DNA of 64,000 bases from Candidatus Krumholzibacteriota bacterium (GTDB lineage: Bacteria; Krumholzibacteriota; Krumholzibacteriia; JAJRXK01): positions 96,001 through 160,000 of the forward strand of contig CAVSGG010000007.1 in the NCBI GenBank assembly GCA_963727455.1, given 5' to 3'. Shown piece by piece: positions 37,804 to 62,038 of this stretch. Both the position numbers and the translations under genes were made by a program. The stretch's first letter is position 1. The number at the start of each line of letters is the position of its first letter. A model generated the notes under the pieces. The model was given only the letters and a program-made list of their open reading frames with translations. It searched no databases and was not told where the DNA came from.

Positions 37804-38777
37804 GCGCAGTTCTCGGCATCGATATCGGCGGGACCAGCTGCAAGCTGGTCTTGCTGGGTGATGACGACAAAATGAGCGAAGAAAGCAATTTCTCCACCCA
37901 AGATCTTTCCGGACCTTCGGATTTCCTGGAGCGCTTGCAAGAGGCGGTGATGCCCTGGTTGCGTTCGGCCGACGCACCGCGCGCGGCCGGAGTGGCAGTG
38001 GCGGGACTCTTGACCAACGAGGGGATTTTGGAGGACGCGCCCAACCTGCAAGAGCTGCGCGGCTGGCGCGTGGCGGACGAAGTCTCCGAGTGCCTTTTGG
38101 GTCTGCCCGTGGTGGCGGAGAACGACGTGAACGCGATGGCCTACGGAGAATTCGAGCTGGGTGCGGGCCGCGAGGCGCGGCATATGATTCTCCTCGCCTT
38201 GGGAACCGGCGTGGGTGGAGCCATTCTCATCGATGGGAAGCTTTACCGGGGAACTCGGGGGGTGGCTGGGGAGTTGGGACATATAACCCTCCAAGTCGAC
38301 GGACCGGATTGCAGCTGTGGTGAGCCCGGCCATGTGGAGGCCTATCTGGGGAGTAAGGGGATCGCCGTCCTCGCGGGAAGCCGGCTCGACGCAGCGGATG
38401 ACGAACAGAAGAAAGCACTGCTGGCGGCCTGTCGGGCCGAGGGCGAGCTTTCGACCCGCGCCATCGCGACGGCCGCAGAGAAGGGAGATCCCCTCAGCGC
38501 ATCCATCTTGGCGGACGTCGGTCGTCTTCTGGGTTTGGTCTGCGCGAGTTACGTGAACATCTTCAACCCCGACGTCATCGTGATCGGAGGGGGAGCTGCC
38601 CTGAGCGGAGACGCATTGTTGGGGCCGGCACGCAAGAGCATGAAAGAGCGGTCCATGCCCGCCGCCCGGAAGGGGGTGCGCATGGTGGCCGCCGAACTCG
38701 GGCTCCCCGCGGCGGCGATCGGAGCGGCCCTGCTCTCACGCCAAGCGCTCTCGGCGAATGGGGAGATGGAGTCCTGA
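37800..38777 (+). CDS. ROK family sugar kinase (glucokinase-like)
   Basis: GIDIGGT, ENDVNA, LGTGVGG, GELGH..CSCG..HVE. Confidence 0.92.
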   Translation: MSAVLGIDIGGTSCKLVLLGDDDKMSEESNFSTQDLSGPSDFLERLQEAVMPWLRSADAPRAAGVAVAGLLTNEGILEDAPNLQELRGWRVADEVSECLLGLPVVAENDVNAMAYGEFELGAGREARHMILLALGTGVGGAILIDGKLYRGTRGVAGELGHITLQVDGPDCSCGEPGHVEAYLGSKGIAVLAGSRLDAADDEQKKALLAACRAEGELSTRAIATAAEKGDPLSASILADVGRLLGLVCASYVNIFNPDVIVIGGGAALSGDALLGPARKSMKERSMPAARKGVRMVAAELGLPAAAIGAALLSRQALSANGEMES

Positions 38778-41700
38778 CTTGAGCCGTGTTCCGGCTTTCC
38801 TTCGCGCGCCACATCCCGCGGTCCCCTTCAAGCGGCTCGGGCAACGCTTCTTTGCGCTTTTGAGCATCTTTGCAGTGGCCGCACTTTTGGCCGCCAACGC
38901 GCCCTCGAGTAGCTCGTCGAACCAGCTGCAGGCCCAGGAGCGCATGCACTACAAAGCCGAGCACGGACGTCGCACGCTCACTCCACGAGGCCCTGTCTTC
39001 TTCGGGGAGGGCAATGCCGAGTTCAGGCAAGGCAATCTCCACGTGACGGCCGACCGGGTCCGCTACTACGAACGTGACCGCTACATTTGGGTGGTGGGAG
39101 CCGTTCACGCAGTCACCGACTCCCTGCAACTGTGGGCCGATTCTCTACGGGTGGAGGAGACGAAGGGTGTGGGCTGGGCTTACGGCCACGTTCGTCTTCT
39201 GGGCAAGGACGGCTCGATGGGCAGCGGCGAGCGCGGGATCTACTGGCGCTATCGCAACGCCATGGCGCTGATGGGCTCGGCCAGGCTCGTCGACTCGACC
39301 ACCACCGTCGACGGCGACAGTCTCTTCTACGATCGCTCCGCGCAACGGCTCGAGGCCTACGGTTCGGTAAAGCTCGTCGACGAGGAAGCCCACACTGTGG
39401 TCACGGGGGAGCACGGTGTGTTCGACCGTGGCACTGGCTACGCCTACGTCGATTCGCTCCCGACTCTGCGCAGCCGCCATCAGAAGGGGGCGACCGCGGC
39501 CGTAAAGAGCAACTGGATGAGCTTCGACACGCAAAAGGAACACAGCAGGGCGATCGGGGATGTCCATTTTCAACAGGGACAGACCGTCGCCGACGCGGAT
39601 ACGGCGGATTTCTACGGCGATGACCTGCTGATCTTGAGGGGTTCGCCCGAAGTAAAGCAGGAAGATCAGGTGATGAACGGCTCGATCATTCGCTTCGGTT
39701 ATATCGATGGAGAGCTGCGACATATCGCCATCATCGGCCAGGCCAGTTTGATCGACTCCAGTCCGGACACCCTGAAATCACAGTTCGTGGGCATTCCATT
39801 GACCAACGAGCTGCACGGCGACAGCTTGAAAATCGAACTCCTCAATGGAGAAGTCCTGCGGACCAGCGTGAGTGGGCATGCGCAGAGCGTCTATCTGCCC
39901 GAGGATCAGAGCGATGTGATCTCGGTCAACGAAGCTCAAGGAGACTCCATCGAGATCGCGTTTTCAAACGGCCGGGTGGACCGCGTCTCCATTACCGGTG
40001 ACAGTGAGGGGAAATACCATTTCCTGGACCGCAGCCGCGTACTCCGGATTCGGGCCGAGCGGGACTCCCTCTTCCAGATGCATCGGGCGCAGCTGGACAG
40101 CTTGGCCCGGGTGGAAGGGGTGTCTTTGGACAGCTTGAAGGTGTCTTCGGAGGCGCCGGGCGGAGAAACCGAGGAGGGTTTGGTGGATTTTTCGAAGCTG
40201 GCGGACACCGTCGGTTACTCGGGAGATTCGACCACCTTCAGGGTGCCCAAGGGGCGCATCAACATCCAGGGCACCGCGCTCGTCAGCCACCAGGATCTCA
40301 CGCTGACCGCCAAGAACATCGACTTCGATACCAACGAGAGGGAGCTGATCGCCGAGGGAGAACCCATGATCATCGACACGAGCAGCAAACTCGTGGGCGA
40401 CGAGATGGGCTACCTCTTCGATTACAAGACGGGCGCGGTGAAGAATGGGATCACGCGTTATGACGATGGTTTCTACTACGGCCGTCATGTGCGCCGGGTG
40501 AACGACGAAACACTCTTGGTGCGCGGAGGGATGTTTACTTCGTGCGATCTTGAACATCCCCATTATCACTTCTCGGCCAAGAAGATGAAGGTGAAGATCG
40601 GCAAGAGCGTGGTGGCGCGGCAGGTCACCTTCTACGTCAGCGACCTGCCTGTCTTCGCCTTTCCCTTCTTCTTCAAGAAGATCGACAAGGGCCGTCACTC
40701 CGGAATCATGTTTCCCAACGTGAACCTGGGAGTGAGTGGCCGCGAAGGCCGTTACATTCGGGACCTTGGCTACTACTGGGCTACCAACGAGTACACCGAC
40801 TTTACCTTCAAGGGTGCCTTCAACGAACGGCAGGATCTGTCGCTTCAGATCCGAAATCGTTACAACGTGCGCTACAAGTTCAGCGGGGACGTGGAATTCA
40901 CCTGGACGACGACTTTGAAGGAGAACCAGAAGGGCAAGGAATGGAAATTCCTCGCCAACCATCGTCAACCCGAACTCTTCGACGCCTGGAGTTTGACGAC
41001 GAACGTAAACCTCACCTCCAACACCATCACGAACATCGATCCCATCACCGGCAATTCGGCCGATCTCTTGCCCACCGAGCTGCGCAGCAATTTGAGCATG
41101 AGCCGCGGTTTCGAGTCCGGGGCACGGCTGAACCTCTCCGGTACGCGCACCCAATACGTGAACGCAGAGGACAGCGATCTCACCACCGACCACCTTATCT
41201 ATCGCCAGACCCTTCCCAGCGTCAGCCTGAGCTTCAAGAGCCGACCGCTCTTGGGGCCGGCGAAACGACGCGGCGAGGGAAGCGCCCCGGCCCAAGTCCT
41301 GAGGGACATGACCTTCAGCCAGAGCTATCGCGGCGACCTTCAGCGCGAGCGGCGCGAGATCGGCCGCGTGGACGAGATCAATGCCTCGGGGAATTGGGGA
41401 CTGAGCTACAATCCGCAGTACCGTCTGGGGCCGTTCAACTTCACCTCCTCGGGCAGCTTCGCGGAGAGCTACCAACGGCGCAAAACTTTCTCGCAGAGTT
41501 ACGTGGCGCGCGCGGACACTCTCAAAGACAGCAATGGCAATCCCATTCTGGACGGCAATGGCAACGTGCAGGTCCAAGAGCTCTACGATCTCGTCTCCGA
41601 AACGGACAAGATCGATGAGGGCAGCACGCCGAGTTTATCCTGGCGCAACTCCCTGAGCACGAATCTCTACGGAATTTTCAATACCCACATCGGCGCGCTG

Positions 41701-42648
41701 CGCGGAATCAAGCACAAGCTCTCGCTCGCTTTCAGCCACTCCTGGCGCCCGCAACTCGGAGATCAACAGAGCGCGAGTCAGAGCATCGGGATTCGCGTGG
41801 GGAACGAACTCAGTTTCAAGTACGCGGCGGGTTCCAGCTCTTCTTCGAAAAGCGCGGGAACGAGCAGGGCCAGCGCCGACACGCTCGATTCCGAGAGTGC
41901 TTCCCGCGAGGAAGACGGTACGGAAAAGGAGGAGATTCGTAAGCTTGAGCGATTGCTCACCTGGGATCTCTCGACCAACTACCGACCCGACGATCCCGCC
42001 GGTCAGAACTGGGACAACATCGGTTCCACCGTGCGTCTCAGTCCGGGCTTCACCCGCGCCATCGACTTCACCATGAACCAGTCCCTCGACCCCTATCGCT
42101 TCCAAGTGCTCTCCACCACCGTGAGCACAAATCTGCGTCTCGATGGCAAGATGGATTTCGGCGGCTTGTTTCTGGAGCGAAAGGAACCCAAGAACGCGGT
42201 GGTCGAGCGCATCGGAGAGCCGGCGGATACTCTGGCAACCACGCAGGAAGATGAGGCGAGTTGGTACGGGCAAATTGGAGGCAACCAGCTCCAACGAAGC
42301 AGCAACGACAACACGATGCCGTGGAACTTCAACGCGCGCGCCAGCATCACCAACGGCAAGGACAGTCCCACTCGCGCCACCATCTCCACCCGGATGAGCG
42401 CCATTCTTCCCATTTCCTGGAATCTGGATTACTCGGCCAACTTCGACGTCGAGACGGGGAACTTCACCAACCAGAGCTACAGCCTCAGCCGTGACATCCA
42501 CCAGTGGCGAATCGAATTCCGTCGCTCGCTCACCAATTCCTCCGACTTCTCCTTCCGGATCTACCTCAAGAGCATTCCCGATTTGAAGATCCAGCGGGGC
42601 AACCAAAGTCTCGGGGGCTACTTCGGGCGGCAGCTGGGGGCCTTCTAG
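38758..42648 (+). CDS. lptD: Putative LPS-assembly protein LptD with a greatly extended OstA/LptA-like N-terminus
   Basis: Signal peptide; repeated xDSLxY / AxGxV beta-jellyroll motifs; FTSCDLEHPHYHF; HSGIMFP; GYYWATNEY; C-terminal LSRDIHQW...FRIYLKSIPDLK. Start uncertain. Confidence 0.8.
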   Translation: MGRWSPDLSRVPAFLRAPHPAVPFKRLGQRFFALLSIFAVAALLAANAPSSSSSNQLQAQERMHYKAEHGRRTLTPRGPVFFGEGNAEFRQGNLHVTADRVRYYERDRYIWVVGAVHAVTDSLQLWADSLRVEETKGVGWAYGHVRLLGKDGSMGSGERGIYWRYRNAMALMGSARLVDSTTTVDGDSLFYDRSAQRLEAYGSVKLVDEEAHTVVTGEHGVFDRGTGYAYVDSLPTLRSRHQKGATAAVKSNWMSFDTQKEHSRAIGDVHFQQGQTVADADTADFYGDDLLILRGSPEVKQEDQVMNGSIIRFGYIDGELRHIAIIGQASLIDSSPDTLKSQFVGIPLTNELHGDSLKIELLNGEVLRTSVSGHAQSVYLPEDQSDVISVNEAQGDSIEIAFSNGRVDRVSITGDSEGKYHFLDRSRVLRIRAERDSLFQMHRAQLDSLARVEGVSLDSLKVSSEAPGGETEEGLVDFSKLADTVGYSGDSTTFRVPKGRINIQGTALVSHQDLTLTAKNIDFDTNERELIAEGEPMIIDTSSKLVGDEMGYLFDYKTGAVKNGITRYDDGFYYGRHVRRVNDETLLVRGGMFTSCDLEHPHYHFSAKKMKVKIGKSVVARQVTFYVSDLPVFAFPFFFKKIDKGRHSGIMFPNVNLGVSGREGRYIRDLGYYWATNEYTDFTFKGAFNERQDLSLQIRNRYNVRYKFSGDVEFTWTTTLKENQKGKEWKFLANHRQPELFDAWSLTTNVNLTSNTITNIDPITGNSADLLPTELRSNLSMSRGFESGARLNLSGTRTQYVNAEDSDLTTDHLIYRQTLPSVSLSFKSRPLLGPAKRRGEGSAPAQVLRDMTFSQSYRGDLQRERREIGRVDEINASGNWGLSYNPQYRLGPFNFTSSGSFAESYQRRKTFSQSYVARADTLKDSNGNPILDGNGNVQVQELYDLVSETDKIDEGSTPSLSWRNSLSTNLYGIFNTHIGALRGIKHKLSLAFSHSWRPQLGDQQSASQSIGIRVGNELSFKYAAGSSSSSKSAGTSRASADTLDSESASREEDGTEKEEIRKLERLLTWDLSTNYRPDDPAGQNWDNIGSTVRLSPGFTRAIDFTMNQSLDPYRFQVLSTTVSTNLRLDGKMDFGGLFLERKEPKNAVVERIGEPADTLATTQEDEASWYGQIGGNQLQRSSNDNTMPWNFNARASITNGKDSPTRATISTRMSAILPISWNLDYSANFDVETGNFTNQSYSLSRDIHQWRIEFRRSLTNSSDFSFRIYLKSIPDLKIQRGNQSLGGYFGRQLGAF

Positions 42649-42837
42649 CAGCCGAGCCGTCGGCTGCGGCCCGCCACTCAGACGCAAGCTCTTAGGCTGA
42701 CCGGTGGGTATCGCCGCTCTGGTTCGGAGCGTTCGCCCGATTCGAGAGCCGCGGAAAATCGGCACATTTTCGACATTTTGCGTTGACAGGACGCCTGGAT
42801 AGGGTCTATTGGGAACTCAAGAAAGGAGGTCTGTCCC

Positions 42838-43137
42838 ATGAACAAGACCGAATTGACCGCAAAACTCGCGACGAGGTCCGATCTCTCCGGCCGTCAGGCC
42901 AAGGCGATCATCGACATGATTTTCGATACCGATCCCAAGAAGGGGATCATCGCCTCTGAGCTGACTCGGGGCCGCAAGGTCCAGATCACGGGTTTTGGCA
43001 CCTTCGAGAGCCGCAAGCGGAAGAAGAGAATGGGCCGCAACCCGCAGACGGGTGACACCATCTCCATTCCCGCGAGCCGGGTACCCGCTTTCAGCGCGGG
43101 TCGTGCTCTGAAGGACCACGTGAACAAGAGGAAGTAA
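42838..43137 (+). CDS. hup: HU family DNA-binding protein
   Basis: MNKTEL...VQITGFGTFE..RMGRNPQTG..PAFSAGRALKD; strong AAGGAGG RBS. Confidence 0.93.
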   Translation: MNKTELTAKLATRSDLSGRQAKAIIDMIFDTDPKKGIIASELTRGRKVQITGFGTFESRKRKKRMGRNPQTGDTISIPASRVPAFSAGRALKDHVNKRK

Positions 43138-43186
43138 TCCATCACGCGGTCTTGGATCGGCCCTTTCTGCCCCAGGTCCAATTCCT

Positions 43187-43225
43187 GACGGAGCCCCCGC
43201 TGTCGGTGGGGGCTCCGTCCGTTTT
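43187..43225 (+). terminator. Intrinsic terminator after hup
   Basis: GACGGAGCCCCCGC-TGTCG-GTGGGGGCTCCGTC followed by CGTTTT. Confidence 0.8.
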
Positions 43226-43301
43226 GGAACCACAGCTCCTTCTCGCGCATTGAACCAGGGGGCGCCTGTCTCCTCACTGGAAGGGCGATTTCAGGCCAAG
43301 A

Positions 43302-43331
43302 TTGCGGCATCCACGCAACTCTTGGTATTAT
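43302..43331 (+). promoter_or_regulatory. Putative sigma70 promoter of the selenoprotein gene
   Basis: TTGCGG-18 nt-TATTAT with extended -10 TGn. Confidence 0.45.
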
Positions 43332-43386
43332 AGTGCTTCGTCTGCCGGAAACCGGGCCAATTCGTCGATCCGTTTGGAGGTCGAAG

Positions 43387-44745
43387 ATGCATCGAGTCAC
43401 CCTGCGAGCAACGAGTTTCCTCGTTGCACTCGCCGCGGCTCTCGGACTGTGGACGCGCATGCCCGCGTCGCAGGCCGAGGATCTGGTCGATCTGACCATT
43501 ACTTTCGAAGGGGCGGTCCATGGTGAAATCGCCCCTTGTGGGTGAAAACACAAGCCGCTAGGTGGGTTGGCCCGGAGGGCCGCCATATTTCAGGACATCG
43601 CCAAGAACCACAAGAACGTGCTCCATCTCGACGCGGGGAACATGTACGGCCGCCGTACGGACGCCGCACGGGCCCAGACCGAGTTCCTACTGCAGCACGT
43701 GGCCAAGCTGGATTATCCGGTGCTCCCGGTGGGACAGTGGGATTTGAACTACGGTCTCGACTTTCTGAAGGAGCAGGCCGCCAAATACAATTTCCACTAC
43801 ATCTCGGCCAACTTGAAGGGTGGGGAGAATGGAAAGCTCCTCTTCGATCCCTATGCGGTGGTGAAGAGAGGCGGACTGCGAATCGGCGTCATCTCGGTGA
43901 TCGGGCCGAGCTACGTCATCACCACCATGTCGGCCAAGGTGGACAAGTTCGTAATCGACTCTCCTCGCGACGCTCTCGAGAAGTATCTACCCGAGCTGCG
44001 GAAGAAGAGCGATCTCATCGTCTTGCTCTCCGGGGCGACCACCCGGGACACGCGCGAACTGTTGACCGATCTGGGCACTGACTCCGGGATCGACATCTGT
44101 GTAGAGGGTGCCGATCTGCGCCAATACCGTCGTCTGAATCGGGTGGGAGACGTCTATCTCGTGTCCGCCAATCCGCAGGGCAAGTACCTGGGTCAGCTCG
44201 ACCTGCAGGTCACTCCCAAAGGGGACATCCAGGACGCGGTTCTGACCCTGCACGAACTGGGCAAGCAGGCGCCGGAGATCGCTGAAATCCAGACCGAAGT
44301 CGACAAGTTCCTCAAGGACAACGAGAAGTTGGCCAAGCATTCGCAGCTGAAGCCCAGTCCCGACAAGGGTCTCAAGGACGAGAAGTACTTGGGGACCACG
44401 CGCTGCAGCAACTGCCACAAGGAAATCTTCACCAAGTACCAGGAAACCGCGCACGCCAAGGCCTGGCAGACCCTGGTGGCGAAGGGACAGACCAGCAATC
44501 CCGATTGCGTGGGCTGTCACGTAACGGGCTGGGACTACTATAACGGCTTCGATCCGACGGTATCGACCAACGGGCAGAACATTCTTTTCAACGTGCAGTG
44601 CGAGGCCTGCCACGGTTACGGAACCATGCATGCGCGCGATGGAGAGTGGGCCGCACAGGCCAAGAAGTCCTGTACCCACTGTCATACTCCTGAGTTCGAT
44701 CCCGATTTTGACTACGACACCTATTGGGCCCGTATCGCCCACTAG
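43387..44745 (+). CDS. Secreted UshA-like selenoprotein fused to a tetraheme c554-like cytochrome (UGA at 43543 read as Sec)
   Basis: GGAGG RBS and signal peptide; HGEIAPCG-UGA-KHKPLGGLARRA is in frame with ORF 43567..44745; LDAGN metallophosphoesterase-like motif; four CxxCH (CSNCH, CVGCH, CEACH, CTHCH). Confidence 0.85.
43546..43585 (+). promoter_or_regulatory. Putative bacterial SECIS element
   Basis: Hairpin GGCCC-GGA-GGGCC (43569-43581), extendable by TGG/CCA; G-rich apical loop 28 nt after the UGA. Confidence 0.65.
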
Positions 44746-44770
44746 GAGTCGTTTGCTCGTTCCCCATGCT

Positions 44771-44804
44771 GCGCCCGGAGGCTCTACCCTCCGGGCGTTC
44801 GCGT
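44771..44804 (+). terminator. Probable terminator hairpin
   Basis: GCGCCCGGAGG-CTCTAC-CCTCCGGGCGT then TCGCGT (weak U tail). Confidence 0.6.
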
Positions 44805-44815
44805 AGACTGCAAGG

Positions 44816-45586
44816 TTGAAGATGTTGCGCTGGCTCCTCTTGGCTCTCTTCGTCTTGGTCGGTCCCGTCAGCTCACGGGCACAGGAGGTCTTTTCTTGGT
44901 GGCATCGCGGGCTGCTCGAATTCGATCTCACCGCGGGTTCGTGGGCGGAGTTTTCGCGCACCGAGACATCCGAGGGTCAACAGACGAAAGAGAAACTGCG
45001 TTGCGAGGTCCTCGCGCGCACCGAGCAAGGAGAGCACTGGATCAAACTGAGATTTCTGGATGAAGAGGAGTCTTACGTTCTACTCGTAGCCCCTTTGGAT
45101 TCCTTGCGGCAGGGAGATCTGCTGCAGGGGCTGCATCGCGTGTTCAAACTCTTGCCCGCCGGCGCGGTCGAGGAGGAAGACCTGGAACGGGTGCGCAACA
45201 ACCGCCTCTTGAGCCGCCATTTCAAGGACCTCTTCGAGAACCCCAGCGTGGAACGTGAGGCTTTGCCCGACACCACCATCGGCGAACAGACGATTTCCCG
45301 CGAGCGAGTGCGGCTCGACGAAGTGCGGGAGGTGAAGGTGAAGATGGGACGCAGCGACATGATCTATCGCAACGAGGCGGTGGCGGTCGCCCAGATTTCG
45401 CCCGCCGTTCCGATCTTCGGCCTCCTGCGCTCGAAGGTGAACACTTCGCTCGCTCCCGCGAATCCGCAAAGGAACAGCCCTCCGCCGCTTCTGACCGAGG
45501 AGGAGCTGGTGTGTGTGGCCTTCGGAAGAAAGTCCACGCCCAGCGGCCTTCCCCCCGAGGTCCAAGAACTCCTGCATTCTCGCTAG
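44816..45586 (+). CDS. Hypothetical secreted protein
   Basis: Signal peptide (MLRWLLLALFVLVGPVSSRA); no recognised motif. Confidence 0.65.
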   Translation: MKMLRWLLLALFVLVGPVSSRAQEVFSWWHRGLLEFDLTAGSWAEFSRTETSEGQQTKEKLRCEVLARTEQGEHWIKLRFLDEEESYVLLVAPLDSLRQGDLLQGLHRVFKLLPAGAVEEEDLERVRNNRLLSRHFKDLFENPSVEREALPDTTIGEQTISRERVRLDEVREVKVKMGRSDMIYRNEAVAVAQISPAVPIFGLLRSKVNTSLAPANPQRNSPPPLLTEEELVCVAFGRKSTPSGLPPEVQELLHSR

Positions 45587-45690
45587 CATCGCCACCGAAT
45601 GGCACCCGCCAAGCCGGAGACCACCTGATGGCCGGTTTGTGCTAAAATCAAGCGAGATATCGCCCCATTTGGACTGCATCGGAGCCTTCG

Positions 45691-46518
45691 GTGGACACTC
45701 ACACCCCACTGCGCGAGGAGAACTTGGAGAGTCTCAGAAGTCGCGCGCACGAGTACTTCATGACGGTCAACCGCCCGGTCGGCAGCGAGGAATTGGCCAA
45801 GGTCCTGTTCAAGCCGCAGATGGACGAGTCTGTCTCACCGCTCTTGGTGCGCACCCTCCTTTCCCGCGACCGCCGTTTCAGTGAATCTTCACGCGGACTC
45901 TGGGAACTCAGCTCCTCACCCTACCGCCATCTTCGTCTGCAGGACGCGGCGTTCGCGGTGGTCGATCTCGAGGCCACCGGTAGCCGACTGGGAGTCGACC
46001 GCATCATCGAAGTGGCGGTGGTACGAGTCGACCACGGCTGTGTGCGTCGCAGCTTCAACACGCTGGTGAATCCCCTGCAGCCGGTGCCGCACTGGATCCA
46101 GGGCTTGACTGGCATCAAGGACTCGATGTTGCAGGACGCGCCTCGTTTTCATCAGGTCGCGCCAAGGGTTTTGGAGTTGCTCAAAGGTAGCGTGTTCGTC
46201 GCACACAACGTCGACTTCGATTATCCCTTCCTGAGACGACAGGTGAGGGAGTCCGGACACCGACCACATCCCTGGCCACAGCTCTGCACGGTTCGGCTCT
46301 CGCGCAGGATGCATCCTGAATGGGGCGCCTTTCGCTTGGGCGCGGTGGCGCGACGTCTGGAGGTCCCCCTCAAGCGGCATCACCGCGCCATCGCCGACGC
46401 CACCGCGACGGCCCAGGTCCTTTTGCGGGAGCTGAAGGAGCTCCAGCACCAGGGCATCGGCACGGTGGGGGAGGTCCTGGCCTTCGCGCGCTCGGCGCCC
46501 GCTCCAGCCGAAGACTGA
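45691..46518 (+). CDS. DEDDh 3'-5' exonuclease (DnaQ/PolC epsilon-like)
   Basis: VVDLEATG, FVAHNVDFD, LCTVRLSR, HHRAIADA. Confidence 0.9.
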   Translation: MDTHTPLREENLESLRSRAHEYFMTVNRPVGSEELAKVLFKPQMDESVSPLLVRTLLSRDRRFSESSRGLWELSSSPYRHLRLQDAAFAVVDLEATGSRLGVDRIIEVAVVRVDHGCVRRSFNTLVNPLQPVPHWIQGLTGIKDSMLQDAPRFHQVAPRVLELLKGSVFVAHNVDFDYPFLRRQVRESGHRPHPWPQLCTVRLSRRMHPEWGAFRLGAVARRLEVPLKRHHRAIADATATAQVLLRELKELQHQGIGTVGEVLAFARSAPAPAED

Positions 46519-53900: not shown

Positions 53901-55289
53901 CGCATGGTGGCGGCCGTCCTGGCCGCCCCGGAGGTGTATTGGATGCGTACTCCACGCCAGCGCTCACTCGCTCTGGTGCGCGGAAAAGTCACCGAGCAAG
54001 CGGCACCCAACAAGCTGCAGGAACTCGTGTCGAAGACGAAGGCGGGACGGACGACCCCGAGTTTCCAGGAGCGACCCTTTACCGGGGTGCGCGTACGCGG
54101 CGCGGATGTCGGCTGGCTCTGCGTGAAGCGCGATCGTCGGCTCGATGAGGGCGAGCTCGCATTCCTGCTCACGGTGGCGGGTATCCTGAGTTTGGCGGGA
54201 CGGCAAGCCACGACCCAAGTCCCCGAGGAATCGTTCGTCACCGAAGAGAAGGAACAGCCTGGCGCCACCTACGGCATCATCGGGAACAGTTCCGAGATCC
54301 GAGAAGTGTTGCGCATGATCGAAATGGTCAAGGGCAACGACGTAACCATCCTGATTCTCGGAGAAAACGGGACCGGGAAAGACCTCGTGGCGCGCGCCAT
54401 CCACAACGCGGGGCCCAGAGCGAAAAGGGAAATGGTGGCGGTCAACTGCGCCTCGATTCCTCCCACTCTCCTGGAGAGCGAGCTCTTCGGACACGAGAAG
54501 GGCGCCTTCACCTCGGCCGTCGACCGCCGCATCGGTCTCTTCGAGCGAGCTCATGGTGGCAGTGTGTTTCTCGACGAGATCGCTGAGATGCCTTTGGCCA
54601 TGCAGGCAAAGCTGTTGCGTGTGTTGCAGGACAAGACCTTCACCCGCGTGGGTGGAAGCAAGAACATCAGTTCCGATGTGCGGGTCATCGCGGCCACCAA
54701 CCGGGATCTGACAGAGGAAGTGGAGCAGGGACGCTTCCGGATGGATCTCTTTTACCGGCTCAACGTCATCTCCATTCGGCTTCCCCCTCTTCGCGAACGG
54801 CGAGAGGACATCCGGCCGCTGGTACATCACTTCCTGCTCTCGTTTTCCAGCGAGTTCCGGCGCCCGGTGCGGGGAATCACCGAGGAGGCGATCGACCGGC
54901 TCATGAACTACGACTGGCCGGGCAACATCCGGGAACTGGAAAACGTCATCAAAAAGGCGATCGTATTCGCGAGCCGCGACCTCCTGCGGGTAGAGGATTT
55001 ACCCAGAATGGGTACGAAGGGACTGCGGATGCACCGTCGTCCCAAGCTCGAGGACACCGTGCGGAGCCTCATCGAGAGCGAGGACTACTCCGCCCAGAGG
55101 CCGCTGATGCCGCGTCTCGAGCTGCAAATCGCCTGGGAACTCGTGCAGTCCGTCGGAAACAAGACAAAAGCCGCGCGCCTGCTGGGGATCACCAAACCCA
55201 CGCTCTACAGCCGTTTGCGCCGTTATGCCGCCCTCAGTGGCGAAGGCGAAGAAGGAGTGATTTTGCGGCAAAAAAGTGGGCGAGCCTAG
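50967..55289 (+). CDS. Giant sigma54-dependent activator (bEBP) with TPR array, AAA+ domain and Fis-type HTH
   Basis: TPRs (ARAYNQLGVV, ARSYNNLSL, AVTQLNLGLL); GENGTGKD, ESELFGHEKGAFTSA, FLDEI, FRMDLFYRLNV, WPGNIREL; NKTKAARLLGITKPTLYSRL. Confidence 0.92.
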   Translation: MNENLIAQRFQRLLPLHEDETLALDLARDLASDSLGSLLSVRARADCHHELAMRVRLASFAPGKLFRELPPLAVVGSHDSLHFFLPPIEAHPWEIQLLAFEGSRAIQDLRVVLQGLDELLKKGCPGGRLALPALYRDEEGPFFLPSSYVLPPAQMHSHHDPNSCRQEVWNLREELSALCRRYLKMAGGRLQALEREEISELQRKLVAEDSDAPMSAALSPLAQALESSREEGGCLILSGSDRAQEEAEHLALRWAQTSERRQAVLRPHVSSPLSRAGRGSEESGGPVVILRDFASYPAFAESLQRLKTAGYWGGTEILLVLIPKGHKEEAARLYLDDLRRGREGKTFEWILPEPPKEVLTVEKSASLQGRILEALQEAGRPLAASMLLLTLSVSEEEFAAATTRLFAQDRVEFSYGFVDEVGAVQELVLALPPQETVECTAERAAEVNKLLAASLEKLSGRSGPGCLWLRLRHALATESPRVGALARQLGGLAERMGDPFLQYAVYERMLADGYSSHLKSEDRAKAALVMGGLHRRAGELTRAEELLKSGLKGIADEEDQSGRPLVPMAAELTLELGAITRDRNRHTETQTLIAEALERYGEDLPTHLRARLYLDISWALLKLGRTREAANYCELVLKILDGESYPHEVARAYNQLGVVQYEESNYAQSLINLQRALVLREQAGDAMGVARSYNNLSLTYRSLGRLAEAERCLKRSLEAKVKAGDSLGVAVTQLNLGLLAIDQHEYQRARAYAAECLHVARRYRHRQMEAEAHGLLGEAAMGEGHYQEARDLLLRDLELCRAQNYETERLATLRRIVGLMLKLKNLKEAKQRLEEARELLTTVPSLYEASMLQVFQSEILRHDGVHQQARDVLNKAARSFGGMRRYDLQLDCLARRAELEWELGHKSEARLTFQEARELAMRHEIHRLPTFLHELEGRLEGSLIGSPAPAATDHKLETLAELLGPGGDLEAGRPGAVLRMVAAVLAAPEVYWMRTPRQRSLALVRGKVTEQAAPNKLQELVSKTKAGRTTPSFQERPFTGVRVRGADVGWLCVKRDRRLDEGELAFLLTVAGILSLAGRQATTQVPEESFVTEEKEQPGATYGIIGNSSEIREVLRMIEMVKGNDVTILILGENGTGKDLVARAIHNAGPRAKREMVAVNCASIPPTLLESELFGHEKGAFTSAVDRRIGLFERAHGGSVFLDEIAEMPLAMQAKLLRVLQDKTFTRVGGSKNISSDVRVIAATNRDLTEEVEQGRFRMDLFYRLNVISIRLPPLRERREDIRPLVHHFLLSFSSEFRRPVRGITEEAIDRLMNYDWPGNIRELENVIKKAIVFASRDLLRVEDLPRMGTKGLRMHRRPKLEDTVRSLIESEDYSAQRPLMPRLELQIAWELVQSVGNKTKAARLLGITKPTLYSRLRRYAALSGEGEEGVILRQKSGRA

Positions 55290-55407
55290 CGCTCCAGCGA
55301 GCCATCGGCCCGAAACGAACCAGAAAGTGGTTCCCTCAGCGCACAAAGATCTGTATCATACCAAAAGCTGGCAGTACCCTGCCAACGAGCCCAGGAGGAG
55401 GGTTTCC

Positions 55408-55770
55408 ATGTTCCGCACTGGCACCATTGCCGTACTTCTCCTCTTCGTCGCACTCTTCACTGCTGTCGCGTTAACGCCGGCTCACGCCAAATGGGCCGTA
55501 AAGGCCACCTTCGATGCGGGGACGCACGAACTCAATCTCGGCACGCAAGTGCTGGAAGTGACCAACAGCAAGCCCATCGTCATCACGGTGCAGTCGGGGA
55601 CGGACCTCATCGCGGGCATCATCGACGCGCTCCAGAAGAACGAGTCCACCCGCGTCCGGATCATCCTCAAGCGTGAAGAGGATACGCTGCTCTTCGATGG
55701 TGAGGTGGCCGACACCGTAGAGTTCAAATCGGCCACCAGCACGGATGAAACCGGGCACTCCGAACTCTAG
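55408..55770 (+). CDS. Small secreted protein (120 aa)
   Basis: AGGAGGAGG RBS; signal peptide ending PAHA; beta-rich mature part. Confidence 0.8.
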   Translation: MFRTGTIAVLLLFVALFTAVALTPAHAKWAVKATFDAGTHELNLGTQVLEVTNSKPIVITVQSGTDLIAGIIDALQKNESTRVRIILKREEDTLLFDGEVADTVEFKSATSTDETGHSEL

Positions 55771-55950: not shown

Positions 55951-56128
55951 GCTCGGATAGGCAAACGAGCCTACTTACTGGCGAGGGCGGCTGGAGGTGT
56001 GTCAGGAATACGAGGGGCTTTCACCGCTTCGCCAGTAAGGATATCGTGCGAGTGCCATCCGTTGGATCGCGATAATCGTTGTGCTACCGTGCGCCGGGTC
56101 TCTCTTGGAGGCCCGGCGTTCGTGTCTT
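55951..56128 (+). ncRNA. Candidate sigma54-dependent small RNA
   Basis: Starts at the predicted TSS. Four hairpins, including CTTACTGGCGA/TCGCCAGTAAG extended to ~23 bp, and a terminal GC-rich terminator-like hairpin. No credible internal ORF. Confidence 0.7.
56091..56128 (+). terminator. Probable terminator of the candidate sRNA
   Basis: GCGCCGGGTCTC-loop-GAGGCCCGGCGT followed by TCGTGTCTT (weak U tail). Confidence 0.6.
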
Positions 56129-56236
56129 CCTGGGGAATCGCGGGGAGAATCGCGTCGACACCCCACGGCTTCTGAGCTAGCGTGTGCCTGATCCAGCTCG
56201 AACCCCCTCCTTTTTCCATCGAGGTCAGAACCCGTC

Positions 56237-57013
56237 GTGAAGCCCTGGTGTACGCGGATTCTCGCGAGCGGGTGCTGGCTCCTCTTGGGCCTACTCGGTA
56301 CCGCCCACGCGGTAGACTTGCAGTCCTTGCCGGAAATCGGTGCGGTGGTGGACGCCCGGGTTCCCCTGCCCACCGACGGTGTGCGGGGCTTTCTCTTCGA
56401 GAACGACTCCGTGGTGCTCTTGGCCACCGCCAATAGGGGGCTCTCTGCTCCTGATTCCACCTTTCAGGTCAGTTTGATGCGGTGGCAGGCATCGACCGGG
56501 AACCTGCGCATCCTGAGCACGCAAACCGACGAGTTCGAAACCGGCTTAAGCTCCGATGGAGAAAACTGGTGGAGCAGTGGCAGCCTCTTGGGGACGAGCA
56601 GCGGGATCTATCAGATTTCCCCGGGCAGCGGCAAAGTCCTGACGACCCTCCCTGCACCAGGTCATCACCCGGGAGGGATCGCGTACGACGGGCTGTACCT
56701 GTGGGTCGTCGACTGCGACGCGCGGAACATTCTGAGGGTAGATACCGAGGAGGGCCGCGTATCCAAGAAGGTTGCGGCGCCCGCGTTCTATCCCACGGGC
56801 TTGGCCTACGACGGTTACCACTTCTGGTCCGCCGACGCCAGTACGGGCAGGCTCTACCGGCTCTCGGGAACCACCGGCCGGCGCGATGCCGTGATCGCCA
56901 AGGACGCGTTCTACCGACCCGGAGAGTTCGTGAGCCTCAGCTGGGACGGCAAGGGTCTGTGGACCGTGGCCGCCAGTGACTCCGAGGCTGCCCGCCTGCA
57001 GATTCTGCGCTGA
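56237..57013 (+). CDS. Secreted beta-propeller protein (glutaminyl-cyclase/YncE-like repeats)
   Basis: Signal peptide ending AHA; repeats GLSSDGENWW, GIAYDGLYLW, GLAYDGYHFW, SLSWDGKGLW. Confidence 0.75.
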   Translation: MKPWCTRILASGCWLLLGLLGTAHAVDLQSLPEIGAVVDARVPLPTDGVRGFLFENDSVVLLATANRGLSAPDSTFQVSLMRWQASTGNLRILSTQTDEFETGLSSDGENWWSSGSLLGTSSGIYQISPGSGKVLTTLPAPGHHPGGIAYDGLYLWVVDCDARNILRVDTEEGRVSKKVAAPAFYPTGLAYDGYHFWSADASTGRLYRLSGTTGRRDAVIAKDAFYRPGEFVSLSWDGKGLWTVAASDSEAARLQILR

Positions 57014-57245
57014 TCTTGGCCCCCTTTTTGCCCCTTGTGGCGCACTGTGGTTTGCTTGACGCCCCCCGTATACCATGGCTAAGTTGAAGATGTCAGCGGC
57101 GAGTTCCTCTCCATGCCGTTGCAAGCGTGCAATCGCAACGGCCTGCTATCACATCAGTTGACACGACCTCCTAGCTTGGTATGGAGATTGCAGCTCATGC
57201 TGTACACGATCTTCCAGCCAAGAGCCCCAATTGCGGGAGAGCACG

Positions 57246-59309
57246 ATGGCAGCGCCAAGCGGTCCATGGACCGATTACATCGAGAGTCTTCAGAATACTC
57301 AGGCCTATCGCGAGCAACACTGGGAAGGATCCTTCGAGGACTACCTTGCCATAGTTCACAAGGATCCCAAGGTCATGCGTTCCGCCTATCAGCGGCTCTA
57401 CGACATGATCATCAGCTACGGGAGTGACGAGTACACCGAGTACAAGAAAAAGATCACCCACTACAACTTCTTCAACGATCCCTTCCAGGGCGGACAGGAT
57501 GCGGTCTTCGGGATCGACATCACGCTCATGAAGCTGGTGAACGTCTTCAAGTCTGCTGCCTACCGTTACGGCACCGAGAAGCGCGTGATTCTTCTGCACG
57601 GACCGGTGGGCTCGGCGAAGAGCACGATCGTGAGGCTCTTGAAGCGCGGAGTCGAAGACTACAGCCGCAGACCCGAGGGAATGATCTTCTCCTTCTACTG
57701 GGATCTCAAGGACGTGCCTGGCATGGAGGAACAGGGTTTCGCCTGCCCGATGCACGAGGAGCCGCTGCATCTCATTCCCGTGCACGATCGCGAAGAGGTC
57801 ATGCACAAGCTCATCGGCGATTCTCCCGAACCCTATCCGCTGCGTTGCGAGGGGGAACTCTGTCCTGCCTGCCGCCACACTTTCTCACTCCTGATGGAGC
57901 ACCATGCGGGCGACTGGACCAAAGTGGTGCAGCACGCGCGGGTGAAGCGTCTCATCCTGAGTGAGCAGGATCGTATCGGCATTGGCACCTTCCAGCCCAA
58001 GGACGAAAAAAACCAGGATTCGACCGAACTCACCGGAGACATCAACTACCGCAAGATCGCGATTTACGGCAGCGACTCGGACCCGCGCGCCTTCAACTTC
58101 GACGGGGAATTCAACATCGCCAACCGAGGCATCGTCGAGTTCATCGAGGTCCTCAAGCTCGATGTCGCGTTCCTCTATGACTTGCTGGGCGCCAGCCAAG
58201 AGCACAAGGTCAAACCCAAAAAGTTCGCCCAGACCGACATCGACGAGGTCATCATCGGTCATACCAACGAGCCCGAGTACCGCAAGCTCCAGAACAACGA
58301 GTTCATGGAGGCGCTGCGTGACCGCACGGTGAAGATCGACGTGCCGTACATCACCAAGCTCGACAAAGAAGTGCTGATCTATCGCAAGGACTATTCGGAC
58401 GAAAAGGTACGCGGCAAACACGTGGCGCCGCACACCCTGGACATGGCGGCGATGTGGGCCGTTCTGACTCGACTCGAGGAGCCGAAGAAGGCGAAGCTCT
58501 CCCTCCTGCAGAAACTCAAGCTCTACAACGGGCATTCGGTTCCAGGTTACACGGACGACAACGTGAAAGAGCTGCGCAAAGAGGCCACCCGCGAGGGCAT
58601 GGAAGGGGTCAGCCCCCGTTACGTGCAGGACAAGCTCTCCAATGGTCTGGTGAGCGAGGACATCGAGGGTTGCCTCAATCCCTTCATGGTGTTGAACGAA
58701 CTCGAGTCGGGCTTGAAGCACTCGACCCTCATCACCAACGAAGATCAGAGGAAGCGCTACGCGGACATGTTCATTCAGGTGCGCGAGGAATACGAGAACG
58801 TCGTCAAGAGCGAGGTGCAACGCTCGATCTCGGCTGACGAAGAGGCGATCGGACGACTCTGTTCCAACTACATCGACAACGTGAAGGCTTACACGCAGCG
58901 CGAGAAGGTGCGCAACCGCTACACCGGCCAGGATGAAGAGCCCGACGAGCGTCTGATGCGGGCCATCGAGGAAAAGATCGAGATTCCCGAGAGCCGTAAG
59001 GAGGACTTCCGTCGCGAGATCATGAATTACATCGGTGCTCTCGCGCTGGAAGGCAAAGTCTTCAACTACAAGACGAACGCGAGATTGCAGAGGGCGCTCG
59101 AGCTCAAGCTCTTCGAGGACCAGAAGGACAGCATCAAGCTGAGTACGCTGGTGACCAACGTCGTGGACAAGGAAACTCAGGAGAAGATCGACGTGGTCAA
59201 GGAGAGGCTGAAGCGCAACTACGGCTACTGCGACATCTGCGCCAGCGACGTGCTCAACTTCGTTTCGTCGATCTTCGCACGTGGTGACGTCCAGGAAGAG
59301 TCCCAATAG
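57246..59309 (+). CDS. prkA: PrkA/YeaG family AAA+ serine protein kinase
   Basis: [61 protein letters not shown]. Confidence 0.95.
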
Positions 59310-59323
59310 CGAAGGCGGCCGGG

Positions 59324-60430
59324 ATGCAGATCAGCCGCATCGATCGTGATCTTCACCGTTTCCAGGACATCGTCCGCGGGCGGATCAAGGAGAATCTGCG
59401 CCGCTACATCTCGCACGGCGAGATGATTGGACGCAAGGGTAAGGACCTCGTCTCCATCCCCGTTCCCAGTATCGACATTCCACGCTTCCGCTTCGGCCCC
59501 AAGGACCAGGCGGGAATCGGTTTCGGCGACGGAGCCGAAGGCCAGCCGGTGCCCGGTCAGGAGGGAGAGGGCCAGGGCCCCGCCGGCGACGCGCCGGGAG
59601 AGCACGTTCTGGAAGTCGAACTCACTATCGACGAACTGGCCAAACTCATGGGTGAGGAACTGGAACTCCCCAAAATCGAGCCCAGGGGAAAGCAACAGAT
59701 CAACTCGGCCCGATCCCGCTACAGCAGCATTCAAATGGTCGGACCGCAGGGCTTGCGCCATTTCAAGCGCAGCTACCGCGAAGCCCTCAAACGCCAGCTT
59801 CAGACCGGCGCCTACGACCCGCTCAATCCCATGGTCATTCCCATCCGGCGTGACATGCGCTACCGCGCTCCGGTAAAAGTACAACAGCCCGCTTCCAATG
59901 CGGTCATCATCTACATGATGGACGTGTCAGGATCGATGGGAGACGAGCAGAAGGAGACGGTCCGGATCGAAGCGTTCTGGATCGACACTTGGCTCAATAG
60001 CCAGTACCAGAACTTGCAGACGCGCTTTCTCGTTCACGATGCCGTGGCACACGAAGTGGACCGTCACACCTTTTTCCACACTCGCGAGAGTGGCGGAACG
60101 AAGATCAGCAGCGCCTATACCATGTGCGCGGAGATCATCGAGAACGAATATCCGCCGAGCGAGTGGAACATCTATCCCTTTCATTTTTCCGATGGAGACA
60201 ACTGGGGCGGCGGCGATACCGAAAAATGTCTCGCTCTCTTGAAGGACACCCTGCTTCCCGCGGTCAATCAGTTCAGCTACGGCCAGGTAACCTCGACCTA
60301 CGGCTCGGGTCAGTTCAAGCGTGAGCTCGACAAGCAGCTCGAAGAAGCGGAGAACCTGGTCACGAGCCAGATCGACACCAAGGATGACATTCCGGACAGC
60401 ATCAAGGTTTTCCTCGGGAAGGGAAGGTAG
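59324..60430 (+). CDS. yeaH: YeaH/YhbH (DUF444) vWA-like protein
   Basis: [37 protein letters not shown]. Confidence 0.92.
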
Positions 60431-60433
60431 GGC

Positions 60434-61945
60434 ATGGCGGGCTTGAGCGAAGATCTCCAGGGATGGAAAGGCAAGATCGAGAAGTACGCGCGCGAGTACG
60501 GACTCGACTTCTTCGAATTGAACTTCGAGGTAATCGACTATCGGCAGTTGAATGAAGTGGCCAGCTACGGTGGTTTCCCCGTTCGCTATCCGCACTGGAC
60601 GCACGGCATGAGCTTCGACCAGCTCAGCAAGGGATATACCTACGGACTCAGCAAGATCTACGAGATGGTCATCAACAATGACCCTTGTTATGCCTACCTG
60701 ATGAAGGAGAACCATCTCGTCGACCAGAAGCTCGTGATGTGCCACGTCTACGGCCACTGCGACTTCTTCAAGAACAATGTCTGGTTCTCGCGAACCGACC
60801 GTCAGATGATCGACACCATGGCAAACCATGCTTCGCGGATCCGCCGCTACATTGGTCGCTACGGGCTGGAGGAAGTCGAGGAGTTTCTCGACCGGTGCGT
60901 CTCGCTCGAGAGACTGATCGACGTTCATTCTGCGTTCTTGAGCAAGAAGCGGATGTCGAACGATGAGACAGCTGCGCCCCAACCGAAACAGGCTCCGCGT
61001 GTGCGTTTCGAAGCCAAGTCCTACATGGAGAGCTTCATCAACGCGAGCGCCGGAATGCAGGAGGAAAGGCAGAGGCGCGAACAGGAGGAAAGGGAGCGAC
61101 GCCCCAAGAAGTTCCCGGAGTCTCCCGAGCGAGACGTGCTGCTCTTCCTCTTGCACCACGCTCCCCTGACCCGCTGGCAGCGCGACATCCTGGGGATGAT
61201 TCGCGACGAGTCCTACTACTTCGCTCCGCAATGGCAGACGAAGATCATGAACGAGGGATGGGCCAGCTATTGGCACTCCAAGCTCATGACGGAAAGAGTG
61301 CTCAACGATTCGGAGATCGTGGATTTCGCCGACCACCACAGCGGCACCATGGGAGGAAACGACTCCCTGAATCCCTACAAATTGGGTCTCTATCTCTATC
61401 GCGACATCGAGGAGCGTTGGAACAAGGGCCGTTTCGGTAGCGAGTACGAGGACTGCGAAAATTACAAGGAACGCAGGAATTGGGATACAGGAGCCGGGAA
61501 GGGGAGGCAGAAGATCTTCGAAGTGCGCACGGTGCACAACGACGTCACCTTCATCGACACTTTCCTTACCGAGGAGTTCGCCCAAGAGAATCGCATGTTC
61601 CTCTACCGCTACGACCTGGAGAAGGACCAGTACGTCGTCGCGAGCCGCGAATTCGCCAAGATCAAACGGCAGCTCCTGGCACAGCTCACCAACGGGGGAC
61701 ACCCCCTCATCTCGATCGTGGACGCCGATTACAGGGGCCACGGCATCTTGTACCTCAAGCACACCTACGAGGGCATCCCACTGGACATCGAGTACGCCAA
61801 GGCTACCCTGGCCAACCTCTTCTCCCTGTGGGGCAAGCCGGTTTGCATCGAGAGCGTCTACCAGGACAAGCCCGTTCTCCTCGAGCACGACGGGAAGGAA
61901 GCCCAGCTCAACAGCCTCGATACCTCGAGTTCCGCCACTGCTTGA
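60434..61945 (+). CDS. spoVR: SpoVR/YcgB family protein
   Basis: GFPVRYPHW, KIYEMVINNDPCYAYL, HVYGHCDFFKNN, TKIMNEGWASYWH, NPYKLG. Confidence 0.95.
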   Translation: MAGLSEDLQGWKGKIEKYAREYGLDFFELNFEVIDYRQLNEVASYGGFPVRYPHWTHGMSFDQLSKGYTYGLSKIYEMVINNDPCYAYLMKENHLVDQKLVMCHVYGHCDFFKNNVWFSRTDRQMIDTMANHASRIRRYIGRYGLEEVEEFLDRCVSLERLIDVHSAFLSKKRMSNDETAAPQPKQAPRVRFEAKSYMESFINASAGMQEERQRREQEERERRPKKFPESPERDVLLFLLHHAPLTRWQRDILGMIRDESYYFAPQWQTKIMNEGWASYWHSKLMTERVLNDSEIVDFADHHSGTMGGNDSLNPYKLGLYLYRDIEERWNKGRFGSEYEDCENYKERRNWDTGAGKGRQKIFEVRTVHNDVTFIDTFLTEEFAQENRMFLYRYDLEKDQYVVASREFAKIKRQLLAQLTNGGHPLISIVDADYRGHGILYLKHTYEGIPLDIEYAKATLANLFSLWGKPVCIESVYQDKPVLLEHDGKEAQLNSLDTSSSATA

Positions 61946-61993
61946 CAGCCCCCTACGCCTCACCTAGCTTCGGCATTGATTGTCATTTTCAAT
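61942..61993 (+). promoter_or_regulatory. Sigma70 promoter followed by a Fur box
   Basis: TTGACA-17 nt-TAGCTT (61942-61970), then the 19-bp dyad ATTGATTGTCATTTTCAAT (61975-61993) over the predicted TSS. Confidence 0.75.
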
Positions 61994-62038
61994 TCGCGAG
62001 GGAACCCTCTGATTTTCCCCTTCGGGGGAGGCTTGGTC

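Follow-up and report, generated by a model that had tools for sequence, protein, structure and literature searches.

Does a stretch of DNA that translation table 11 divides into two genes encode a single protein, and if so, what does that protein do? The locus that raises this question lies in a 64,000-nucleotide region of a Candidatus Krumholzibacteriota genome (contig CAVSGG010000007.1, positions 96,001 to 160,000 of the forward strand), hereafter the window, whose first letter is position 1. Two open reading frames (ORFs), 43333..43545 and 43567..44745, share one frame and are parted by a TGA codon at 43543-43545. If this TGA is read as selenocysteine (Sec), translation from the ATG at 43387 to the TAG ending at 44745 produces a single protein of 452 residues, in which an N-terminal domain carrying a C-G-U motif is joined to a tetraheme cytochrome c. 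The evidence presented below indicates that this is almost certainly a genuine Sec-decoded selenoprotein gene and a member of the NCBIfam family NF041198. As to the role of the protein, the reading that we favor, with a probability of roughly 0.55-0.6, is that the C-G-[C/U] motif serves as a redox centre in the periplasm and is wired to the hemes.

One reading frame across the TGA codon

A previous interpretation of the window, made from its letters and ORFs (the sequence-only reading), had placed the two ORFs in the same frame on either side of the TGA and had predicted that readthrough would yield a signal peptide, the segment HGEIAPCG-U, an LDAGN segment and four CxxCH motifs. We reproduced both observations at the same coordinates. 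The 452-residue product contains ...HGEIAPCG-U53-KHKPLGGLARRA...LDAGN... together with four CxxCH motifs (starting at C340, C374, C405 and C429). Its N-terminus, MHRVTLRATSFLVALAAALGLWTRMPASQA, is hydrophobic, and the AlphaFold2 model assigns the first 30 residues block-mean values of the predicted local distance difference test (pLDDT) of 42-54. The only signal peptide of the readthrough gene, predicted by eye, is encoded upstream of the UGA. The ORF that starts at 43567 under table 11 is thus left without a signal peptide, and yet it carries the four CxxCH motifs, which require export. The individual features of the gene are collected in Table 1.

Selenocysteine and cysteine at the same codon

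Relatives of the readthrough protein were collected both from a protein collection and from genome contigs. In the protein search 8000 candidates were scored; 195 of them proved to be relatives, and 120 of these are listed. The window protein and 28 listed relatives, selected for covering at least 90% of the query, constitute alignment A1 (29 rows). The sequence-only reading had named the alignment of homologues, with Cys or Sec opposite the UGA, as the way to check the proposal. In A1, position 53 is Cys in all 28 full-length homologues. Residue C51 is Cys in 29 of 29 rows, and the C-G-C context is invariant except for a single C-S-C row.

The scan of genome contigs revealed at least 601 matching stretches, at least 333 of them encoding relatives, and the best 80 loci (designated by L numbers) were kept. 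A strict motif search of these loci detected 32 gene copies with TGA and 27 with TGC or TGT at the codon in question. Reading by eye of the 23 loci without a strict match brought in L010 as a further TGA copy, together with 12 Cys copies; in the stretches printed for the other 10 there was no N-terminal domain. With a looser motif, followed by at least 250 codons downstream, the set comprised 79 gene copies (33 TGA and 46 TGC/TGT). Once the window gene is added to this set, exactly four CxxCH motifs are present in 75 of the 80 rows.

The distribution of the two states was mapped onto a quick IQ-TREE phylogeny of 74 rows, from which six rows had been dropped. The window sequence groups with seven TGA-bearing rows (support of 99 in the Shimodaira-Hasegawa-like approximate likelihood ratio test), and this group is nested in a larger one of 19 rows, all of them TGA-bearing (support 87). 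Over the whole tree the Sec/Cys state changes at least four times, two of the changes being forced by well-supported branches. The TGA is thus kept across long branches, which is not what would be expected of a pseudogene.

A reassigned genetic code does not account for the TGA either, because TGA terminates 23 of the 39 window genes checked (38 Pfam-matched ORFs and the present gene). Among these 39 genes an internal in-frame TGA was found only in the gene under study. Frames that span a TGA and have a Cys within three residues of it number 44 in the window, this gene included; two of the others (55108-55767 and 56039-57010) were compared with NCBIfam and matched no family.

A hairpin downstream of the UGA codon

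The sequence-only reading had also noticed that a hairpin whose loop reads GGA follows the UGA at a distance of 28 nt and had taken it for a bacterial Sec insertion sequence (SECIS) element. The hairpin is present as described. Its core, GGCCC-GGA-GGGCC, occupies positions 43569-43581 and has a loop that starts 28 nt from the UGA. If one U is allowed to bulge, the hairpin reaches out to 43565-43584, and the 5-bp upper stem is continued by 3 bp below the bulge. The model of bacterial SECIS elements in the legend to Figure 2 of PMC13188914 (this and the other papers given below by accession are quoted from the accessible parts of their texts) specifies a loop of 3-9 nt, an upper stem of at least 4 bp, a G in the first two loop positions, a UGA-to-loop distance of 16-37 nt and a minimum free energy (MFE) of -7.5 kcal/mol or lower. 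With its GGA loop, 5-bp upper stem, distance of 28 nt and folding energy of -12.7 kcal/mol, the window hairpin falls within these constraints.

It is the comparison with other members of the family that raises the observation above chance, through the alternation of Sec and Cys at the codon and through the covariation of the hairpin in 32 TGA-bearing sequences. Counting from the T of TGA, we fixed the register so that the loop corresponds to nucleotides 32-34 and the pairs to 31-35, 30-36 and onward outward. The contiguous stem in this register was counted only for rows in which five residues separate U/C from GG; nine rows spaced differently were left out. The stem measures 0-10 bp (median 6.5) in the TGA rows (n = 32) and 0-6 bp (median 1) in the Cys rows (n = 19). 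The corresponding one-sided Mann-Whitney test gives p = 5.5e-6, a value that is only indicative because the rows are related to one another. In the alignment of the 32 TGA sequences, 84.4% of the cells are paired, as opposed to 34.7-49.3% if the 3' partner is displaced by 1-3 columns. Changes on both sides affect five of the nine stem pairs (27 cells), and none of 500 shuffles attained the observed pairing, covariation score or pair-type count. One further locus (L049) has a different spacing and builds a hairpin with a GGA loop from other codons. The proposed SECIS assignment is therefore borne out by the structural constraints of PMC13188914 in conjunction with covariation in the TGA-bearing copies and the lack of the stem in the Cys copies.

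Family membership and its consequences for annotation

Against NF041198 (UshA_like_PCGU, an equivalog model) the readthrough protein scores 305.3 bits, above the cutoff of 275 (E 7e-91), in agreement with the UshA-like assignment made earlier. When the two halves were scanned separately, the N-terminal part matched positions 6-301 of the 519-position model and the C-terminal 133 residues matched positions 401-518, with 113.8 bits on their own. The curated model therefore already includes the heme domain. The motif P-C-G-U53 stands shortly before GGLARRA (APCG-U53-KHKPLGGLARRA), which is the C-x-U ahead of GGxARRA that had been anticipated.

One part of the earlier claim has to be given up. The selenoprotein was called hidden, but NF041198 covers the gene together with its cytochrome domain, and the CxU family has been in print since 2008. 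The GOS (Global Ocean Sampling) study (PMC2398784, Zhang & Gladyshev 2008) includes it in its selenoprotein families as 'COG0737, UshA-like, CxU', represented by 76 sequences with Sec and 92 with Cys, and describes it as having no classical Cys-based redox motif. It is also tabulated with representative accessions in the reviews PMC9312934 (2022) and PMC13188914 (2026; as NF041198). The accessible parts of these three papers only list the UshA-like family and state neither a function nor a heme domain for it. The gene is thus a member of an already catalogued family and not a hidden novelty. Architecturally there is no difference between the family and the window protein, which is a divergent member: its identity to the 73 locus-derived rows of the tree does not exceed 39%, and the listed database records reach 93%.

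The expectation that standard pipelines would split the gene was correct. The closest listed database records start with MARRAA... or MGGLARRAA..., directly after the TGA; for example, P0003 (93% identity) starts with MARRAAIF and P0005 (68%) with MGGLARRAAIF. Among the listed hits of at least 48% identity (P0003-P0040, n = 38), only the Cys forms P0012 and P0013 reach a query coverage of 94%, the others staying at 87% or less. Since close records start just after the UGA position, they represent the same gene split by gene callers. The correct annotation is one selenoprotein of 452 codons. Calling a 392-residue 'cytochrome' instead leaves out not only the signal peptide but also strand 1 of the fold and the catalytic motif, and most of the close listed records carry an error of this type.

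Two kinds of relatives lack the cytochrome domain. NF049981 (UshA-like (seleno)protein family 2) has the same N-terminal fold and a Cys/Sec motif before GGLARRA, but its motif is given as CxxU in the accessible part of PMC13188914, in contrast to CxU in the window protein, which scores 48 bits against the NF049981 cutoff of 140. The heme-less homologues of 304-348 residues likewise share the fold and the position of the motif; they contain DCGC and are 34-43% identical to the N-terminal domain of the window protein. At two loci, L011 (3952, 5127) and L022 (2831, 3986), a heme-less UshA-like gene directly precedes a heme-fused TGA-form gene as a tandem paralogue. The upstream paralogue is a TGA form in L011 and a Cys form in L022.

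N-terminal domain: a 5'-nucleotidase fold without its metal ligands

The AlphaFold2 model, derived from 85 aligned sequences, has a pLDDT of 90.5 and a predicted template modelling score (pTM) of 0.86. Foldseek places the N-terminal two-thirds with 5'-nucleotidases (3ive, CD73, UshA) and SoxB at E ~1e-20 to 1e-18. For 3ive the E-value is 1.6e-20, and the query-based TM-scores for 3ive and other 5'-nucleotidases are 0.50-0.56. Profile matches to the PDB also comprise 5'-nucleotidases (E 9e-38) and SoxB (E 5e-21). At the level of Pfam, neither a metallophosphoesterase (PF00149) nor a 5_nucleotid_C domain was found in the window protein at E <= 1. The window protein thus has the N-terminal fold and the GGxAR helix start in common with E. 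coli UshA/CD73 and SoxB, but it differs from them in being without the dimetal ligands and the C-terminal substrate-binding domain, and in having gained C-G-U.

In 5'-nucleotidases the dimetal ligands reside in the motifs DxH, GD, GNH(D/E), H and GHxH. Using these motif definitions, we placed the ligand columns from an alignment to a 5'-nucleotidase. The window protein has A43/H45, N85, Q117/W118 and A242 at the ligand positions. Neither the Asn nor the His of GNH occurs in any of the 85 rows, and the His of DxH is present in one of 29. Three columns are partly kept: the Asp of DxH in 22 of 29 rows, and the Asp of GD and the His of GH in 46 of 85 rows each. With its metal ligand residues lost, the N-terminal domain is therefore not expected to be a phosphoesterase.

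The invariant residues of this domain in A1 are C51, C/U53, G59, G60, R63, G84 and L204, and among them C-G-[C/U] forms the one reactive motif. In the AlphaFold2 model C-G-U is positioned in the loop between the strand 34-41 and the helix 61-74, that is, in the loop which follows the first metal motif of true 5'-nucleotidases. Since the ligand columns are unconserved and C-G-[C/U] is the sole invariant reactive motif, the catalytic centre appears to have shifted to C-G-[C/U].

The tetraheme domain

The fusion to a tetraheme cytochrome c, noted earlier on account of the four CxxCH motifs, could be assigned to a particular type. The only Pfam domain above its cutoff is Cytochrome_C554 (PF13435; residues 340-410, 56.7 bits versus 20.8), and sequence comparison relates the C-terminal domain both to cytochrome c554 (1bvb, E 1.7e-11) and to a module of OcwA that is itself c554-like (6i5b). 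The Cys and His residues of all four CxxCH motifs are invariant in A1; in alignment A3, C377 is only nearly so. Beyond these motifs the conserved His residues are H356 and H415 (both invariant) and H452 (at least 90%), which amounts to three candidate distal His for four hemes.

Like the window protein, Nitrosomonas europaea cytochrome c554 (1bvb/1ft5) and the OcwA module (6i5b) have four CxxCH motifs, and hemes 1-3 as well as the distal-His segment TAHAKA can be aligned. According to the accessible part of bioRxiv 10.1101/641308, heme 2 is the open-coordination active-site heme in both c554 and OcwA. As far as the accessible descriptions go, the window family would also resemble c554 in having one fewer conserved distal His than hemes. 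In contrast to c554, the module of the window protein is a C-terminal appendage of an enzyme-like domain; the region of the fourth heme aligns poorly, and the NCBIfam model Cyt554_Nsmonas gives 43.5 bits versus a cutoff of 400. Two other groups, ExtKL (NF040886) and the octaheme cytochromes of the tetrathionate-reductase family (TIGR04315), are also Sec-containing exported multiheme c-type cytochromes, as listed in the accessible part of PMC13188914. They are nevertheless different families: the window protein scores 17.7 bits against the TIGR04315 cutoff of 375, and its Sec resides in a separate, non-heme domain.

A possible mechanism and its alternatives

These features can be combined into a tentative mechanism. 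The signal peptide would export the protein, and four c-type hemes would be attached in the periplasm. The N-terminal domain would retain the 5'-nucleotidase/SoxB fold minus the residues for the two catalytic metals. Its C51/U53 pair would most likely cycle between the selenol/thiol and the selenenylsulfide, or form an adduct with a substrate, and this centre would exchange electrons with the c554-like heme chain. The result would be an oxidoreductase that works in the periplasm on a small substrate of the sulfur, selenium or thiol type. The family is widespread and pairs a rare C-G-U motif with a heme wire. It is also tractable for biochemistry, for instance through the Cys form in cultured Myxococcus (L047, Myxococcus sp. 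CA023).

Several observations weigh against this interpretation, and some of them concern the decoding itself. Taken alone, the window hairpin is not beyond chance: the z-score of its folding energy is -1.31, 25 of 200 shuffles fold equally well or better, and the 76-nt fold has z = 0.17 (the G+C content of the window is 59-64%). The A-R-R-A codons fix three of the four inner hairpin pairs, so some of the pairing follows from the protein sequence alone, and the informative signal resides in the wobble-position pair and the outer stem. Five of the 32 TGA sequences (L048, L052, L059, L072 and L075) have no stem in this register, and the MFE of the 60 nt downstream does not separate TGA from Cys loci (mean -19.2 versus -17.2 kcal/mol, p = 0.17). 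Within the 64-kb window we found no selA, selB, selD, tRNA-Sec or cytochrome c maturation genes by Pfam (54 ORFs), Rfam (no matches at the gathering threshold) and ARAGORN (no tRNAs). It might be argued that the TGA is a true stop, and the locus a nonsense pseudogene, the product of a sequencing error or two genes, one for a 52-residue peptide and the other for a 392-residue cytochrome. Table 11 does yield two ORFs, many database records are annotated as split, and TGA is the usual stop codon in the window. However, 33 gene copies, belonging to several phyla and spread over deep branches, have TGA at this codon, and neither the frame nor the P-C-G motif nor strand 1 of the fold is interrupted by it. 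The hairpin covaries, and the downstream ORF alone would be a c-type cytochrome without a signal peptide. Taken together, these data make a true stop hardly credible.

The remaining points bear on chemistry. Our literature search found no experimental study of any member of the UshA-like selenoprotein family, and the loci examined share no functionally informative conserved neighbourhood. Locus L010 (~5001-5330) reads R-P-A-G-U-G...GGVARRA, where the first Cys is replaced by Ala and the TGA is kept; a C51-U53 selenenylsulfide is therefore not universal. The heme-less homologues, along with the paralogues next to fused genes, indicate that the hemes are not obligatory in cis. The continued activity of the protein as a UshA-like nucleotidase/phosphoesterase or a SoxB-like thiosulfohydrolase, to which its fold and sequence similarity might point, is very improbable: GNH is missing in all 85 rows and the His of DxH is seen in one of 29, the scores are far below the cutoffs for SoxB (TIGR04486, 75.9 bits versus 550) and UshA (NF007109, 46.6 versus 600), and a cytochrome has replaced the C-terminal nucleotide-binding domain. 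C-G-[C/U] could instead bind metal and so create, in what used to be the dimetal pocket, a different site of mononuclear or cluster type to which the hemes feed electrons. The location of the motif would suit such a role, as the strand 34-41, the helix 61-74 and the 5'-nucleotidase alignment put it beside the former metal site, and the family often keeps the Asp of DxH, the Asp of GD and the His of GH. Yet none of these three columns is invariant, the window protein itself has A, N and A there, and two ligands three residues apart are few for binding a metal; we regard a metal site as unlikely, albeit worth bearing in mind. It is also rather doubtful that Sec53 (or Cys51) acts at a heme, either as the distal ligand or as the reactive partner of the c554-type heme 2, for which no His would be at hand as sixth ligand, in a heme-selenolate or heme-thiolate catalytic site. 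The shortage of conserved distal His, with H356, H415 and H452 for four hemes and no conserved Met, Lys or Tyr in the conservation lists for A1 and A3, would be explained in this way. Hemes 1-3 align with c554, in which, as in OcwA, heme 2 is the open one (bioRxiv 10.1101/641308, accessible part), and no invariant side chain of the N-terminal domain other than those of C51 and C/U53 is capable of acting as a ligand, R63 being invariant as well. On the other hand, heme-less homologues retain the same motif, and heme 2 may merely be open, as it is in c554. A speculative extension, which we consider a long shot, is that the metal-stripped phosphoesterase scaffold presents Sec to the open distal face of heme 2, creating a site of the heme-selenolate (or heme plus selenol) type that would act on small sulfur or selenium compounds or on nitrogen oxides. 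We know of no described natural enzyme with an active site of this kind.

Table 1. Features of the selenoprotein gene, in window coordinates
Feature	Position	Strand	Evidence
Whole gene: 452 codons and TAG stop, one UGA read as Sec at codon 53	43387..44745	+	Sequence; NF041198; AlphaFold2
Shine-Dalgarno-like GGAGG, 6 nt before the ATG at 43387	43376..43380	+	Read from sequence
Probable Sec-type signal peptide, residues 1-30, MHRVTLRATSFLVALAAALGLWTRMPASQA	43387..43476	+	Predicted; cleavage site by eye
5'-nucleotidase/SoxB-like metallophosphoesterase-fold domain without dimetal ligands, ~residues 31-318	43477..44340	+	NF041198, PDB profiles, Foldseek, ligand columns
C51-G52-U53 (TGT GGG TGA), proposed redox centre; UGA is the Sec codon	43537..43545	+	Sequence; homologue alignment
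SECIS-like hairpin, loop GGA at 43574-43576	43565..43584	+	Fold of -12.7 kcal/mol; register kept in TGA-bearing homologues; covariation
Cytochrome c554-like tetraheme domain, ~residues 330-452	44374..44742	+	PF13435; NF041198 positions 401-518; matches to 1bvb and 6i5b
Heme 1 motif, C340-S-N-C-H344	44404..44418	+	Sequence; invariant in alignments A1 and A3
Heme 2 motif, C374-V-G-C-H378	44506..44520	+	Sequence; aligns with CVGCH of c554
Heme 3 motif, C405-E-A-C-H409	44599..44613	+	Sequence; alignments A1 and A3
Heme 4 motif, C429-T-H-C-H433	44671..44685	+	Sequence; alignments A1 and A3

Distribution and gene neighbourhood

The best 80 loci include contigs labelled as Krumholzibacteriia, Eisenbacteria, Acidobacteriota, Myxococcota, Planctomycetota (including Scalindua), Verrucomicrobiota, Armatimonadota and Thermodesulfobacteriota. 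In the window the selenoprotein gene is part of the order LptD - HU - selenoprotein - (small ORF) - RNase T-like exonuclease (38758-46518), and this order recurs, whole or in part, in L001-L012 and L023. These loci form the 19-row all-TGA group, with titles that include Krumholzibacteriia, Eisenbacteria and Fibrobacteraceae, and the seven closest neighbours of the window in the tree come from loci sharing this neighbourhood. The genes in question are likely orthologues. Because LptD, HU and the exonuclease are housekeeping genes, the synteny reflects relatedness, which is of use in placing the source organism, and is uninformative on function.

Neighbours that recur in different phyla are a DUF1573 Ig-like protein (12 loci), DciA (8), Maf (8) and DUF4159 (6). 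In the representative locus L036, where adjacency was read, the DUF1573/Ig-like ORF (up to 655 codons from stop to stop) lies directly upstream of the homologue. Similar DUF1573 ORFs are present in 12 loci altogether (L013, L014, L019-L021, L024, L035, L036, L044, L064, L073 and L077), which come from Planctomycetota (including Scalindua), Armatimonadota and Nitrospirota. The DUF1573 Ig-like protein may be a partner of the selenoprotein.

For some metagenome-assembled genomes the taxonomic label disagrees with the tree. Rows labelled 'Fibrobacteraceae' cluster tightly with Krumholzibacteriia, the 'Clostridia' row (L028) with Blastocatellia, the 'Coxiellaceae' row (L043) with Myxococcales and the 'Patescibacteria' row (L010) with Krumholzibacteriia-like rows. 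The conflicts concern rows from L001, L004, L006, L008, L010, L028 and L043, and labelling or binning errors are the likely cause.

Other features of the window

Between 42600 and 45800, a promoter and terminator scan yielded no signal in excess of that expected from shuffled sequence. A G+C-rich inverted repeat (CGCCCGGAGG ... CCTCCGGGCG) at 44772-44797, 27 nt past the TAG, has no T-run and was not flagged by the terminator scan; it could be a terminator lacking a U-tract or a regulatory hairpin. Directly downstream of the selenoprotein gene, the ORF 44816-45586 (+) encodes 256 residues with a signal-peptide-like N-terminus and matches no Pfam or NCBIfam family. Its only relative found, a weak one, is located at the same position in L008 (tblastn E 6e-8).

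Farther downstream, a PrkA - DUF444 - SpoVR gene trio occupies 57231-61945 (+), an arrangement that we take to be the stress module of the yeaG-yeaH-ycgB type. The ORF 61976-63031 (+; 351 residues) contains two matched stretches of the Fur family domain, which points to a Fur-type regulator that is duplicated or to a single ORF that spans two neighbouring genes. Finally, the window codes for two HU-family proteins, at 5455-5940 and 42838-43137 (+), the former of which would have an N-terminal extension of ~69 residues if its GTG start is real.

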